From the NCBI RefSeq assembly GCF_056746865.1, contig NZ_JBWKMP010000003.1: a stretch of DNA of 64,000 nucleotides, one strand, 5' to 3'. Source of the DNA: a plasmid. The stretch's first letter is position 1; the number at the start of each line of letters is the position of its first letter. The notes below the pieces were generated by a model. That model saw nothing but the letters and a program-made list of their open reading frames with translations, was not told the origin of the DNA and ran no database searches. Shown here piece by piece: positions 14,634-21,485 of this stretch. The position numbers were made by a program, and so were the translations under genes.

Positions 14634-17600
14634 TTGAGGGGGCTTCCTTTGGACAAAATAATTGATTCAATTAGCCAGGCCACCAGCATTGGGGCGCTGA
14701 TTGAAATTGTTAGTCGGTTGCATAAACCGCGAGCTGTAGTGACCTTTGGCGTTAAGAAAGTCGATGGCGTCAGTATTCAGAAAACACGCCGGACAGCAAA
14801 CAACGCCGCAGTAGATCTTCTTAATTCCCTTCCGCCCGGCTTCGATGGAGCGAAATTAACTGACGAACAGCGTCAGATTCTTGCCGGGTATACCGGTGAA
14901 GGCGGCCTGACAGATGGTGAGGGCAGCCAATACGAATACTATACGCCACAGTTTATGGCAGAAGGTATATGGGATCTCTTCGGCGACTACGGTATTGATA
15001 GCGGTCACGTACTGGAACCGTCAGCAGGCACAGGTATTTTCCAGGAGACAAAACGGCAGGGCATGATAATGACCAGCGCCGAACTGTCTCCGATCTCCGG
15101 TCGAATAAACCAGCTTTTGCACCCGGAAGATGATGTGAATATCGGGGCGTTTGAGGCGCTGGCGGCGAAAGATGCAATGTATGACCACGCAGTTGGTAAC
15201 GTACCGTTTGGCGAAGGGCGTTCCGGCGTCGCCGGGCTTGATCCGGCATATGCAAACGAGAAGAACGTTGGCAATTATTTTGTGCTGCGCACGATCGACA
15301 AGGTTAAGCCTGGTGGGCTAATTGTATTGGTGGTGCCGAATGGCATGACCGATGGTACGAAATACAAAAAATTGCGCGATAAAGTCAGCCGTAAAGCGGA
15401 ATTTTTGGGCGCGCATCGTATGCCTTCTGGTACGTTCAGCGAATCCGGTACAGATACCGTGGTGGACGTATGGGTATTGCGTAAACACCCGGAAACCTTC
15501 CTGGAGATGATCCCCGACACGGATGATGCAACGCTCAAATCGGCAAACGTCCTTTGGGATACCTTCCTCAAAGGGAAATGGTTTACAACCGAAGGGAAGC
15601 GATTTGTTTACGGCGACATGGAACGCACCAGCTTCCGCAATACCCTGGTGGTGAAAAAGGACGGTCGTGTATCCAATGAGTCGATGAAAACCGCGTTATC
15701 ACGCCGCTTTGAAAGCCGTATTAATTGGGATTTGCTCGGAGTAACTACCCAGGCATGGCAGGGCGCAAAAGTAGGGGATAAGCGTCTTGTAGGCGGTATC
15801 TGGCATGAGTTTGATGGCCTGAAATGGGTTAAGGACACGACAACCAAATCCTCCGCGCTTGATGTAAGTCGATATGGTGTTTCGACGTTTGGCGATCTGC
15901 AGATCGCGTTCCAGTCAACAAACGGGATTCTGGCTTTGTCATGGGACCAGATATCGGCGATCGCGTCCGACTATCCATCGGTTGTCAGTGATGAAGTGGC
16001 AGCAATGATTCGCTTTGCTGGCAAACAGCGAGAAAAAGACAGGGAGCGCGTTATGCGCGGTGCGTTGATAGGGCAGTTGATCAACAAGGCACTTGATTTG
16101 CGTAACCTGGGGGTGAACGTTGATGACAAACTGGCAGATGCATCCCGCCTGGCGGCAGCAGAAGTTGCGAAGTATGGACCACCGCACGCGATTAAGCTGA
16201 ATGGGCTTGCTGAAGCTGGCGCTAAAAACTGGATGACGTTCACTGGCAATGTGAAACAGGATGGTTCCACTTCTGACCTTCTGGCAGGGCGACTTGATGT
16301 AACGGATGGTGCTGCCGGTATTGACTTTACACGTCCGGAACAAGTGATAGCACATCTTTTCAGTGATGTAGCCCTTAATCCTATAACGCTGGGCGACTTT
16401 CGTGAGGCGTTTGCTGGTGAACTGCCAGAGGACGACGACGCGGCCCTTGAATACCTGGCGAAATTTGATGATATCGCTATTGATGGGTATGGCTGCCTGC
16501 TGCCGATGGACCGCGCCACCAGCGGCGATATTGTAACCAAAACAGCATTGCTGGTGGGCTGGCGTGATGCATCAACAGGTGAGCAGAAAGCGAACTTTGA
16601 GCGTCAGTTGGCGAAAATCGAAGAGAAACGCATTTTCACGCCACTAAATAAAGTCACCGTTAATCTGAACGCCCGCTGGCTGGATCGCCGCTTGATAAAA
16701 GAGTTCCTGGCAGAGCAGGGCTATGACGAGTTTAAGTACACTGAACCTGATCTGAAGGTCGTCGATGGCATTCTGGTATCTCCGGACGATTACGAAGGTA
16801 AGGACGGGGTATTTACCGGCTATCAGCTACGAACCGTAAACGGCAAAAACGGGAATGAGTTCAAGAAGGCCAACAATAAAGACGGCTTCCTGAACCAGTT
16901 AGAAAACTACCTGAACGGTGTTAAACCGCGTGGGCAGAACGCTAACGAGTACCTGGATAAAATTGCTCAACTGGAAGTTAGCTTTAACGACTGGTTACGC
17001 ACCCACCCGCAGGCGGATCAGATAGCCCGTGACTATAACGACGCATTCAATGGCTTCATTCCGTTCACGCACTCTAACGCACCGCTTGGCCTGGAAGGGA
17101 TTAGTGGAAAGCGCATTCCTCTGACTTATCAGAATGAAGAAGTTCGTCGCTTGTCAGAAGATGGGCGCGGCATCATGGGATTTGGTACCGGGCTGGGTAA
17201 AACCACGACCGCGCTTGCGCTTGAGGCGTATAACTTCGAAACAGGTCGTACTAAACGCACGTGTATTGTTGTTCCGAAGGCGGTTTATCAGAACTGGTAT
17301 CACGAGGCACAGAGCTTCTACAGTGCTGATGCCTTCGCCAATATGATGTTTATCGGTCTGGATGAAGTTCGTGATGACAGCGGAAATATTCTGACCGCTC
17401 CGGTGCTTGATGAAAATGGCGAACCCCGCCTCGACAGTAACGGGCAGCCTCTTACCAGAAATGTTGTGAAAGAGTCCGCCAGCGCCGTTATCGTTCAGCG
17501 CATGAACATGATCCCGTCGTCAAATTGGCGAACGGTCATCATGACAAAAGAACAATTCGCGTCTATCCCGCTACGAGAAAAAACCATCGAGGAGAACTCA

Positions 17601-20600: not shown

Positions 20601-21485
20601 TGGAGGACCGTGCTGGCATACCGTTTATTCAAGGGCAGAATGAAAGCCTTTAGCAATATCGATGATATTGAACGGATGTTTAATCAGGTCAAGATCGCCA
20701 AAATTAAGACGAAGATCGAAAAAACACGTTCTGCGCTGGTGGCCTGGCGCGATGCATTGTTTGAGCAATATAAATCACTCAGTGATGCAGATGGATGGGC
20801 GGCATTGGAACAGTTGGCGAATAATGGGGTAGATGGAGCGAAACTCGCCATAGTCCAGGCTGATAACCCCCTGGAATCACCGGCAGCACAGTGGATTAAG
20901 GTGGGGGCTGTCATCAATGCATTTGATGAAAAACACATTAGTAAGGACGATTTTGCTGATGCTGTTTCTGTTAATCGCCTGGTAGAAATGGCTACCCGCC
21001 GCGCCCGTGAGTTGAAAGACGGTGACTATGTGAATGAGTTGCCGGATGCGCTCAAATCAGCAACGTGGCAAGACTATGTATCGCTGAAAAACGGCGGGGC
21101 CACCGAATCAGAGATCGCGGAAAGGCTTGAACAGGCTGAAAGCAAAAGAGAAGAGCAGGCGGCAGTGGCTGAAGCAAGAGCTGATGAAGCGGCGAATGAT
21201 GACTATATCATTGTGGTTAATGATAAGCCGATTCGCGCTAAGGCGCGTGTTCGCGGGCGCTGGTGGAGTGTCAGCGAGGACGTCGGTGCGGTTTATCTCA
21301 TTGCCGACCAACCTGGTTCCTCGACAATACGGAACGCCAAAGACGCGATTAAGAAGATTGGCGGGCGTTTCTGGAATTTTGAAGCAAACCCGGTTGCTGA
21401 TGTGAACTTTGACCGTCCTGCATGGATGGTATCTACGCGTTACTCGTTAGATGAACTGCGTAAAATAATCGCCGATGCGGCCTAA
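14634..21485 (+). CDS. darB: DarB-like giant methyltransferase-helicase (N6-adenine MTase-like domain plus SF2 helicase)
   Basis: 2283 aa; MTase motif I-like EPSAGTGIF and motif IV-like NVPFG near the N-terminus; helicase Walker A GFGTGLGKTT, DEGH box IADEGHNY, motif VI QRNGRGARVG; size and architecture match what I recall of P1 DarB (about 2255 aa). Start is TTG per ORF track and uncertain. Confidence 0.75.
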   Translation: MRGLPLDKIIDSISQATSIGALIEIVSRLHKPRAVVTFGVKKVDGVSIQKTRRTANNAAVDLLNSLPPGFDGAKLTDEQRQILAGYTGEGGLTDGEGSQYEYYTPQFMAEGIWDLFGDYGIDSGHVLEPSAGTGIFQETKRQGMIMTSAELSPISGRINQLLHPEDDVNIGAFEALAAKDAMYDHAVGNVPFGEGRSGVAGLDPAYANEKNVGNYFVLRTIDKVKPGGLIVLVVPNGMTDGTKYKKLRDKVSRKAEFLGAHRMPSGTFSESGTDTVVDVWVLRKHPETFLEMIPDTDDATLKSANVLWDTFLKGKWFTTEGKRFVYGDMERTSFRNTLVVKKDGRVSNESMKTALSRRFESRINWDLLGVTTQAWQGAKVGDKRLVGGIWHEFDGLKWVKDTTTKSSALDVSRYGVSTFGDLQIAFQSTNGILALSWDQISAIASDYPSVVSDEVAAMIRFAGKQREKDRERVMRGALIGQLINKALDLRNLGVNVDDKLADASRLAAAEVAKYGPPHAIKLNGLAEAGAKNWMTFTGNVKQDGSTSDLLAGRLDVTDGAAGIDFTRPEQVIAHLFSDVALNPITLGDFREAFAGELPEDDDAALEYLAKFDDIAIDGYGCLLPMDRATSGDIVTKTALLVGWRDASTGEQKANFERQLAKIEEKRIFTPLNKVTVNLNARWLDRRLIKEFLAEQGYDEFKYTEPDLKVVDGILVSPDDYEGKDGVFTGYQLRTVNGKNGNEFKKANNKDGFLNQLENYLNGVKPRGQNANEYLDKIAQLEVSFNDWLRTHPQADQIARDYNDAFNGFIPFTHSNAPLGLEGISGKRIPLTYQNEEVRRLSEDGRGIMGFGTGLGKTTTALALEAYNFETGRTKRTCIVVPKAVYQNWYHEAQSFYSADAFANMMFIGLDEVRDDSGNILTAPVLDENGEPRLDSNGQPLTRNVVKESASAVIVQRMNMIPSSNWRTVIMTKEQFASIPLREKTIEENSQQAVFNAVEMGRLDLASGKHRDAQKKNKIKDQAANTGTTKKQNIPYFEDMNFDSVIADEGHNYRNSFNAGREAGQLAYLPNPAVSKMARDMAVKAAYMMKRNNGRGVVMLTATPLVNSPIDAFNMLSTVIPQEEWMRMGIITPDDFVRVFGKTATVQVQKISGEVEEKQGLVGFQNLDGLRGIFHRWTTLKTAADVGATVKIPDIVENTLQIPMTGEQEAAYEELRKRAQELSSKDALTVDENGHITNEKPDDFIFSIIRDMDKVAIDPDLYASAITFQFPVELADKVKAIADALPKVAGGKVADDADEAEEDGAGGLVSTRTSKVVKTTFSEHPAHVEIRASIELEAEILKAIAAAGIDMQQVSHPIPPKYAALIENLREGLKNGKQIVFIDEKAQHQKLRRIIASALQMPEQEIGIINATTVSQAGGIKLKKVNKPTEPTPNKNGEYKEGAWETYYSKLAQYEDYLSAKNDAGLEGMEGIAADYNEGRTRIIICNKKAEVGINLHIGTTDIHHLTLPWTPASIDQRNGRGARVGSPQEKVNVHYYCGKGTFDDFRLDTLKRKKDWIKMVMTSDMSEIANGDADDADERAIMLAANPEERRAIMARQAQEREERLKLKAQREANNALDIYLKAANAAGKDIGMMETELKSAMEQIEYYQRNLDDLIKAGTNRNGQKFALEQLSSYRKRARVLRFAITRAKDADTIMKRSRGDVERAIKSGVLDISIDVIQNPQEYMRTDKNILLHKGSYYRAVIDDRETTAIVRVEKIDGEKAQYLCRIAWLDRASRYARSPGSIVTLPFDSVIEAVTFEEGVAESRATAARGVQCHQLSTILTRDQFYDAIRNGVMNVIAGKPGNAWGGGSAIKYWAYRTDDGQIALSSAYDGVIGQKIGRASDIAPERWIYPDGNDEALKREVAKIQASDNPLNIVDGEGFLQALYGYDYIQGMQAWGAQATMDDVVQEFENWMAGRGLSGRSLNKVTSEDILSLFRKPSGEGLESFWRTVLAYRLFKGRMKAFSNIDDIERMFNQVKIAKIKTKIEKTRSALVAWRDALFEQYKSLSDADGWAALEQLANNGVDGAKLAIVQADNPLESPAAQWIKVGAVINAFDEKHISKDDFADAVSVNRLVEMATRRARELKDGDYVNELPDALKSATWQDYVSLKNGGATESEIAERLEQAESKREEQAAVAEARADEAANDDYIIVVNDKPIRAKARVRGRWWSVSEDVGAVYLIADQPGSSTIRNAKDAIKKIGGRFWNFEANPVADVNFDRPAWMVSTRYSLDELRKIIADAA

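Follow-up and report, generated by a model that had tools for sequence, protein, structure and literature searches.

Does the open reading frame (ORF) at positions 14634 to 21485 on the plus strand of plasmid contig NZ_JBWKMP010000003.1 encode a relative of DarB, the antirestriction protein of phage P1, as a first-pass annotation made from the letters alone had proposed, and if so, what would such a protein do? We analyzed a 64,000-nucleotide (nt) stretch of this contig, which we call the window. All positions are window positions, and the gene track is a program-made list of ORFs. We found that the gene is very probably the DarB orthologue of a plasmid prophage resembling phage D6, acting by the packaging and enzymatic route set out below. 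The gene was known before: annotated copies exist in D6 and in many RefSeq plasmids, and it is an ordinary member of a known family. The gene call itself therefore adds nothing new.

The gene encodes a DarB homologue in a D6-like phage-plasmid

We aligned the translation with P1 DarB (AAQ13985.1, 2255 amino acids [aa]) by BLASTP. The two proteins share 865 identities over 2000 positions (43%; E = 0), which bears out the proposed likeness to DarB. The alignment runs from residue 1 to 1935 of the 2278-aa protein that we define below (6 to 1940 in the numbering of the 2283-aa translation) and from residue 1 to 1924 of P1 DarB. Among the PHROG families, we found a full-length match to phrog_1685 and also a match to phrog_10089, "DarB-like antirestriction."

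Escherichia phage D6 (MF356679) matches the gene at 97.0% nt identity over its whole length. The D6 orf15 product (ASR76325.1) is 98% identical to the window protein without gaps and is labelled "defense against restriction; similar to P1 gene darB"; the next D6 gene is labelled "similar to P1 gene ulx." The neighbors are alike as well, since the gene order in the window is that of D6: lydA, lydB, hdf, darA, ddrA, and ddrB; prt, pro, and repL; C4, icd, and ant (immI); a TIGR02594 hydrolase gene; and darB and ulx. The hydrolase gene lies between immI and darB, on the strand opposite to darB. Judged by its sequence, the window is a D6-like phage-plasmid (plasmid prophage). The first-pass annotation had singled out the location of the gene relative to P1. 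We found that the gene does follow prt/pro, repL, and immI (C4 antisense RNA, icd, and ant), which differs from P1, but this is simply the annotated order of D6.

Escherichia coli plasmid pMUB-MIN14-1 carries the gene at 99.8% nt identity, and its copy appears in RefSeq as a single coding sequence (CDS), WP_068862848.1, "SNF2-related protein." This plasmid has an extra gene for a 165-aa "carboxypeptidase-like regulatory domain" protein (14407 to 14904 of the plasmid locus compared) between the TIGR02594 hydrolase gene and darB, where the window (14497 to 14648) and D6 have only an intergenic region of about 150 nt. Of the records in a plasmid collection, 113 span 80% of the gene or more, and DNA of at least 95% identity is present in 81 sequenced plasmid records from Escherichia, Salmonella, and Shigella. 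Typing scored 379 of 394 matching plasmid records as nonmobilizable. Among the matching plasmids listed, all but one are 75 to 97 kb, the hosts are Escherichia, Salmonella, and Shigella, and nearly every row has one annotated CDS beneath the match.

The frame is intact and most likely starts at the second TTG

The frame is uninterrupted for 2283 codons from its first TTG. By arithmetic, the chance of a stop-free run this long is about (61/64)^2283, or 1e-48, and it is therefore not a chance ORF. We also looked for interruptions in close relatives and found the frame intact in D6 and present as a single CDS in pMUB-MIN14-1.

The first-pass annotation had placed the start at the TTG at 14634 and had noted that the first in-frame ATG lies more than 100 codons downstream. 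The latter is correct, the first methionine after the TTG being residue 108 of the 2283-aa translation. The start codon does appear to be a TTG, but most likely the second one, 15 nt further downstream at 14649, which gives a protein of 2278 aa. The features that define the start are as follows.

14649 to 21485, plus strand: darB homologue, 2278 aa plus stop, TTG start
14636 to 14642, plus strand: strong Shine-Dalgarno (SD) sequence, GAGGGGG, 6 nt ahead of the start TTG at 14649, read from the sequence and conserved in D6

We placed the start at 14649 because of the position of this SD sequence, which falls inside codons 1 to 3 of the longer frame; because D6, which keeps the SD sequence and this TTG, has no ATG, GTG, or TTG in frame between this TTG and a TAG stop upstream; and because BLASTP aligns Met1 of P1 DarB with the codon at 14649. 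The equivalent of this codon is the start in the D6 record and in the PGAP annotation (WP_068862848.1) alike. The five extra codons of the 14634 start are probably not translated. We excluded an internal start at the ATG of residue 103 (2278-aa numbering), which would delete the conserved N-terminal helices and an invariant TP motif. Upstream of darB, we found only generic sigma-70-like promoter matches. We also looked there for a P1-type late promoter (ACAAGTGAYT box) and for a local recurring motif, TAAGTAGGC-N4-TANNNT, but the window was enriched for neither.

Domain order and Dar partner genes are shared with P1

P1 and P7 DarB have the same domain order as the window protein: an N-terminal signal (presumed in the window protein), LPD36-like helices, a gamma-class adenine methyltransferase with GNVPFG, a long linker, an SNF2 ATPase, and a C-terminal extension. 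Identity to P1 varied along the protein as follows.

N-terminal 45 residues: 24%
LPD36-like helices: 64%
Methyltransferase core: 56%
Linker: 39%
SNF2 lobe 1: 60%
SNF2 lobe 2 core: 63%
Post-helicase region: 24%

In P1, ulx follows darB, and hdf, darA, ddrA, and ddrB are present. We found the same set of partners in the window.

3177 to 3818, plus strand: hdf homologue, 40% identity to P1 Hdf (D6 annotation)
3815 to 5740, plus strand: darA homologue, 41% identity to P1 DarA (D6 annotation)
5740 to 6108, plus strand: ddrA homologue, 34% identity to P1 DdrA (D6 annotation)
6202 to 7587, plus strand: short ddrB homologue, 461 aa, 65% identity, matching only the N-terminal ~450 of the 995 residues of P1 DdrB
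21522 to 21956, plus strand: ulx homologue, 144 aa, 46% identity to P1 Ulx, directly after darB

We fetched five other enterobacterial phage-plasmid loci and found the darB-olxA/ulx pair in all of them, four being so annotated. There are also differences from P1. The P1 darB start codon is ATG rather than TTG, P1 DdrB is twice as long as the window version, and P1 darB is divergently adjacent to prt, whereas in the window prt, pro, repL, and immI lie upstream in the same orientation, together with the hydrolase gene.

The N-terminal domain models as a gamma-class adenine methyltransferase

The first-pass annotation had described a methyltransferase joined to an SF2 helicase. Pfam, a structure model, and motif conservation agree on this architecture. 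Its N-terminal features are the following.

14784 to 15683, plus strand: N-terminal helical (LPD36-like) region and gamma-class N6-adenine DNA methyltransferase, residues 46 to 345 (AlphaFold2, Foldseek, and Pfam)
14943 to 14948, plus strand: TP motif, T99-P100, N-terminal to the methyltransferase core
15015 to 15041, plus strand: motif I, EPSAGTGIF, for S-adenosylmethionine (SAM) binding (sequence and representative relatives)
15198 to 15212, plus strand: motif IV, NVPFG, with N184, P186, and F187

The Pfam match to N6_Mtase is weak (E = 1.6e-3). AlphaFold2, run on residues 1 to 345 with a 24-sequence alignment, gave a mean predicted local distance difference test (pLDDT) score of 88. The best Foldseek matches in the PDB, all with a probability of 1.00, were the type I HsdM proteins of Vibrio vulnificus (7eew/3ufb) and EcoKI (2ar0) and the gamma-class adenine DNA methyltransferases M.TaqI, M.BseCI, CamA, PacII, and BsaXI. 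The model thus has the fold of a gamma-class N6-adenine DNA methyltransferase, and HsdM and M.TaqI come nearest to it. These best structural neighbors share the motif order (TP, I, and IV) at only 13 to 21% sequence identity. They differ from the window protein, which lacks an HsdS or target recognition partner, is fused to an SNF2 motor, and has valine in place of the first proline of motif IV.

Conservation follows the predicted active site. Across the 24-sequence alignment (37 to 54% identity to the query), T99-P100, N184, P186, and F187 do not vary. The TP motif, whose role has been described previously (PMC5512222), is also found in 146 of 150 representative relatives.

N(V/I)PF is a signature of the clade

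The NVPFG of motif IV had been reported in the first-pass annotation as a variant. The variant is there, but it is no peculiarity of this ORF: P1 DarB also has GNVPFG. To count the variants, we used a HMMER scan of the methyltransferase domain against 1.84 billion cluster representatives, which gave 8,010 clusters at an E value of at most 1e-3. Motif IV in the best 150 of these 8,010 clusters, mostly proteins of 2,000 to 2,600 aa, was distributed as follows.

NVPF: 128 of 150
NIPF: 11 of 150
NPPF or NPPY: 6 of 150
NLPF, NAPF, and TLPL: 1 each of 150
Not alignable: 2 of 150

N(V/I)PF is thus present in 139 of these 150 relatives. The canonical NPPF or NPPY occurs in distant podophage "DarB-like" proteins (Bcep22 gp75, PEp14, and Thermus Lalka8). 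From these counts, Val/Ile at position 2 is a conserved feature that marks the P1/D6-proximal clade and is not an oddity of one ORF. That it has been conserved speaks for function and against decay. Since the fold and the remaining motifs fit, we read the domain as a gamma-class enzyme with a variant motif, like P1 DarB.

In a separate observation, the closest solved structure, V. vulnificus HsdM (7eew_A/3ufb), has "SGVPFG" aligned with "GNVPFG" of the query. It also has Val-Pro-Phe, without the Asn.

We asked whether the variant might hint at a different reaction. In KsgA and ErmC′, the first proline is replaced by a small hydrophobic residue, which allows a monomethylated adenine to return to the active site. 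Motif IV of these dimethylating adenine methyltransferases reads (A/S/N)(L/I/V)P(Y/F) (PMC3814359), and NVPF fits this pattern, a resemblance at the motif level only. The top 50 Foldseek neighbors, mainly DNA methyltransferases (HsdM, TaqI, BseCI, CamA, and PacII), included neither KsgA nor Erm, and Pfam RrnaAD had no match in the protein. If the motif is nevertheless read in this way, P1/D6-type DarB proteins would not be ordinary N6-methyladenine (m6A) DNA methyltransferases but translocase-driven enzymes whose substrates can include adenines already N6-methylated (for example, at hemimethylated or Dam-methylated sites) or whose product on injected DNA is N6,N6-dimethyladenine. We consider this very unlikely. 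We know of no antirestriction system in which N6,N6-dimethyladenine is a DNA mark, so the mark would be new to such systems if the idea were true. The clade-wide N(V/I)PF is best taken as a lead, a concrete, testable hint at the reaction of the methyltransferase, and not as a finding.

The SNF2 motor is complete and the C-terminal region diverges fast

A complete SF2 helicase had also been claimed, and we found motifs I to VI intact. The features of the motor and of the C-terminal region are as follows.

17109 to 19448, plus strand: SNF2-type SF2 translocase/helicase module, residues ~821 to 1600 (Pfam and motif conservation)
17178 to 17207, plus strand: helicase motif I, GFGTGLGKTT (from the translation)
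17772 to 17783, plus strand: helicase motif II, DEGH, within ADEGH (from the translation)
19176 to 19208, plus strand: helicase motif VI, QRNGRGARVG (from the translation)
20454 to 21482, plus strand: fast-diverging C-terminal region, residues 1936 to 2278, with a helical part and a beta-rich terminal domain of ~90 residues

The translation also includes LTATP of the helicase set. The Pfam matches are weak and mutually consistent (SNF2-rel_dom, 9e-7; ResIII, 4e-4; and Helicase_C, 1e-4). Motifs I, Ia, II (DExH), III, V, and VI are at least 80% conserved across 114 to 124 representative relatives.

The last ~340 residues can barely be aligned with P1 (26% over 143 aa; E = 0.05). About 115 of the 150 representatives cover residue 1550, 17 cover residue 1950, and 1 to 3 extend past residue 2000. 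A tblastn search with the last 344 aa matched 134 plasmids and phage D6, with identities of 99%, 74%, and 63% and down to ~25% (Pantoea, Citrobacter, and Leclercia). The matches were always the end of a DarB-like gene, and olxA/ulx came next in the five loci that we fetched. When the C-terminal 378 aa served as the query of a word-indexed protein search, only near-identical fragments came up. A structure search with the C-terminal region found no structural neighbor. We considered a module swap as the cause of the difference between P1 and D6 in this region and rejected it in favor of fast divergence, given the graded homologues (74%, 63%, and ~25%) and the last ~90 residues, which are conserved even with P1 in the alignment.

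The gene is under purifying selection outside a divergent N terminus

We compared darB with its D6 counterpart and counted 157 synonymous and 47 nonsynonymous differences, a ratio of nonsynonymous to synonymous rates (dN/dS) of 0.083. The methyltransferase, linker, and SNF2 regions gave values of 0.05 to 0.06 (0.057 for the methyltransferase). We concluded that darB is under strong purifying selection.

The N terminus departs from this pattern. Of the nonsynonymous changes, 12 fall within the first 45 codons (14649 to 14783), where dS is 0.41 and dN is 0.126, versus about 0.1 and below 0.01 in the rest of the gene. The presumed capsid-targeting segment lies here and may be a divergent or recombination patch.

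14649 to 14738, plus strand: first 30 codons, positional equivalent of the P1 DarB capsid-targeting sequence, with the same function by presumption

Both fast-evolving parts, the presumed N-terminal signal and the C-terminal ~340 residues, probably coevolve with the phage's own head, its Dar partners, or host targets.

DarB would be packaged and would protect the injected DNA in cis

Previous work demonstrated that P1 DarB is a ~250-kDa head protein with about 40 copies per virion and that the first 30 residues are enough to direct a reporter protein to the capsid (PMC9024508). Its incorporation depends on Hdf/DarA and then on DdrA, DdrB, and Ulx (PMC12810830). The action of the P1 Dar system is confined in cis to the DNA with which it was packaged, and defense against EcoB and EcoK requires DarB, Ulx, and DdrB (PMC12810830, PMC12707154). 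A methyltransferase-SNF2 dyad, in which the motor carries the adenine methyltransferase, has been proposed from bioinformatic data (PMC5512222). Bcep22-like and PEp14-like podophages have giant virion proteins, termed "DarB-like antirestriction," with the same methyltransferase family and SNF2 pairing (PMC5512222). These differ from the window protein in their size (3,700 to 4,900 aa), in having extra domains, and in their canonical NPPF/NPPY, versus N(V/I)PF in the P1/D6-proximal clade. In all, relatives of the methyltransferase domain (27 to 37% identical) are present in 123 phage records.

By analogy with P1, the window DarB would be made late in infection. Its N-terminal ~30 residues would target it into the prohead after Hdf/DarA, DdrA, and DdrB, aided by Ulx, to tens of copies per virion. 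It would then be ejected with the DNA and would protect that same molecule in cis from type I restriction of the EcoK/EcoB type. In the proposed mechanism, the SNF2 motor would load onto the incoming duplex and move along it, carrying the methyltransferase. The methyltransferase might N6-methylate adenines, the moving complex might block or displace type I enzymes, or both, before restriction complexes act. Our own evidence for this gene covers its sequence, fold, intact motifs, selection, and gene context; the rest of the model is inferred by homology.

Several observations weigh against the model. Neither DNA methylation nor ATP hydrolysis is known from any DarB, and the mechanism is "not defined" (PMC11109961). 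Cloned darB DNA alleviates EcoKI restriction without any protein, through its Chi and EcoKI sites (PMC11109961), so plasmid-based darB phenotypes are unreliable. A full-text literature search, the D6 genome paper aside, found no experiments on Dar function in D6. The N-terminal 45 residues share only 24% identity with P1, whose own signal has no defined consensus (PMC9024508). DdrB, needed in P1 for DarB incorporation, is short in the window, and the packaging pathway may differ in D6-like phages. Finally, motif IV departs from the canonical two-proline signature: N-V-P-F does not match the PROSITE-type pattern (D/N/S)-P-P-(Y/F/W).

The last of these points bears on a purely physical form of protection, in which DarB would cover the entering DNA or move along it and would shut out or dislodge type I enzymes. 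Its methyltransferase-like domain would then serve only as a nonmethylating DNA- or SAM-binding module. A cis-acting occlusion hypothesis for Dar has been put forward in an EcoSal review (PMC12707154). It fits with a motif IV that is noncanonical at position 2 and with the ~40 copies of DarB per P1 virion, which are few for methylating a genome of ~90 kb unless the enzyme is processive. Yet T99/P100, motif I, N184, P186, and F187 vary little or not at all among relatives 37 to 54% identical and are kept in 146 to 148 of the 150 representatives, as expected of a working active site, and the low dN/dS of the methyltransferase region points the same way. We therefore regard protection without methylation as unlikely.

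A methyltransferase with an SF2 helicase is also found in several restriction and defense systems, and the protein gave weak matches to the DISARM DrmD, ZorD, DpdE, and BrxH helicase models. It could thus be a type I, type III, or ISP-like restriction-modification enzyme or a DISARM- or BREX-like component directed at other phages instead of an antirestriction protein. These matches are local to generic helicase or methyltransferase motifs (in PADLOC, too, to helicase motifs) and fall far under the curated cutoffs; DrmD (NF038317), for instance, scored 45.3 bits against a cutoff of 610. Pfam found no nuclease domain, and the gene lies beside ulx, with dar and head genes, and resembles P1 DarB end to end. 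We rejected a restriction or defense role on the subthreshold family scores and the lack of a nuclease domain in Pfam and consider it extremely improbable. As for a decaying, nonfunctional relic carried in a prophage, the great size of the gene, its weak TTG start, and a few related plasmid records with no CDS or two CDSs beneath the match count for little beside a 6.8-kb frame uninterrupted here and in D6, the low overall dN/dS, the breadth of plasmid records that carry it, and the retention of all catalytic motifs, and we practically dismiss it.

The packaged, motor-driven methyltransferase is thus the reading that we prefer. DarB proteins, discovered about 40 years ago, are a widespread antirestriction device of phage-plasmids, which also spread resistance genes, and the D6-type DarB offers a second natural variant, 43% identical to P1, for comparative experiments.

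We also counted DNA sites linked to restriction. Chi (GCTGGTGG) occurs 44 times in the 64 kb (26 on the plus strand and 18 on the minus strand). Seven copies lie inside darB, and P1 darB has 11. The count is relevant because Chi and EcoKI sites on cloned darB DNA cause the protein-independent alleviation noted above (PMC11109961). The window has 24 EcoBI sites, TGA(N8)TGCT, against 10.7 ± 3.2 expected (0 of 100 shuffles reached 24), and 3 EcoKI sites, AAC(N6)GTGC, against 9.0 ± 2.8 expected. This skew may be a codon usage effect.

Other features of the window

Between ddrB and the portal gene, at 7699 to 8130 on the minus strand and adjacent, lies a HicA/HicB-like toxin-antitoxin pair, according to the annotation of a near-identical plasmid. 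D6 has two hypothetical genes at this position instead. The window has two C4 antisense RNA loci, at 12598 to 12804 and at 54545 to 54755, both on the plus strand. One has an a1/b1 target element upstream of icd/ant (immI), and the second copy, ~42 kb away, is preceded by a small RNA of the isrK family. ARAGORN and Rfam placed tRNA genes for Asn, Thr, Ser, and Met at 26040 to 26972 on the plus strand, which is the darB strand. The GenBank record of D6 gives its tRNAs (26284 to 26989 of the D6 locus) in the same order on the opposite strand, without the tRNA-Met; the strand discrepancy is probably a slip in that annotation.

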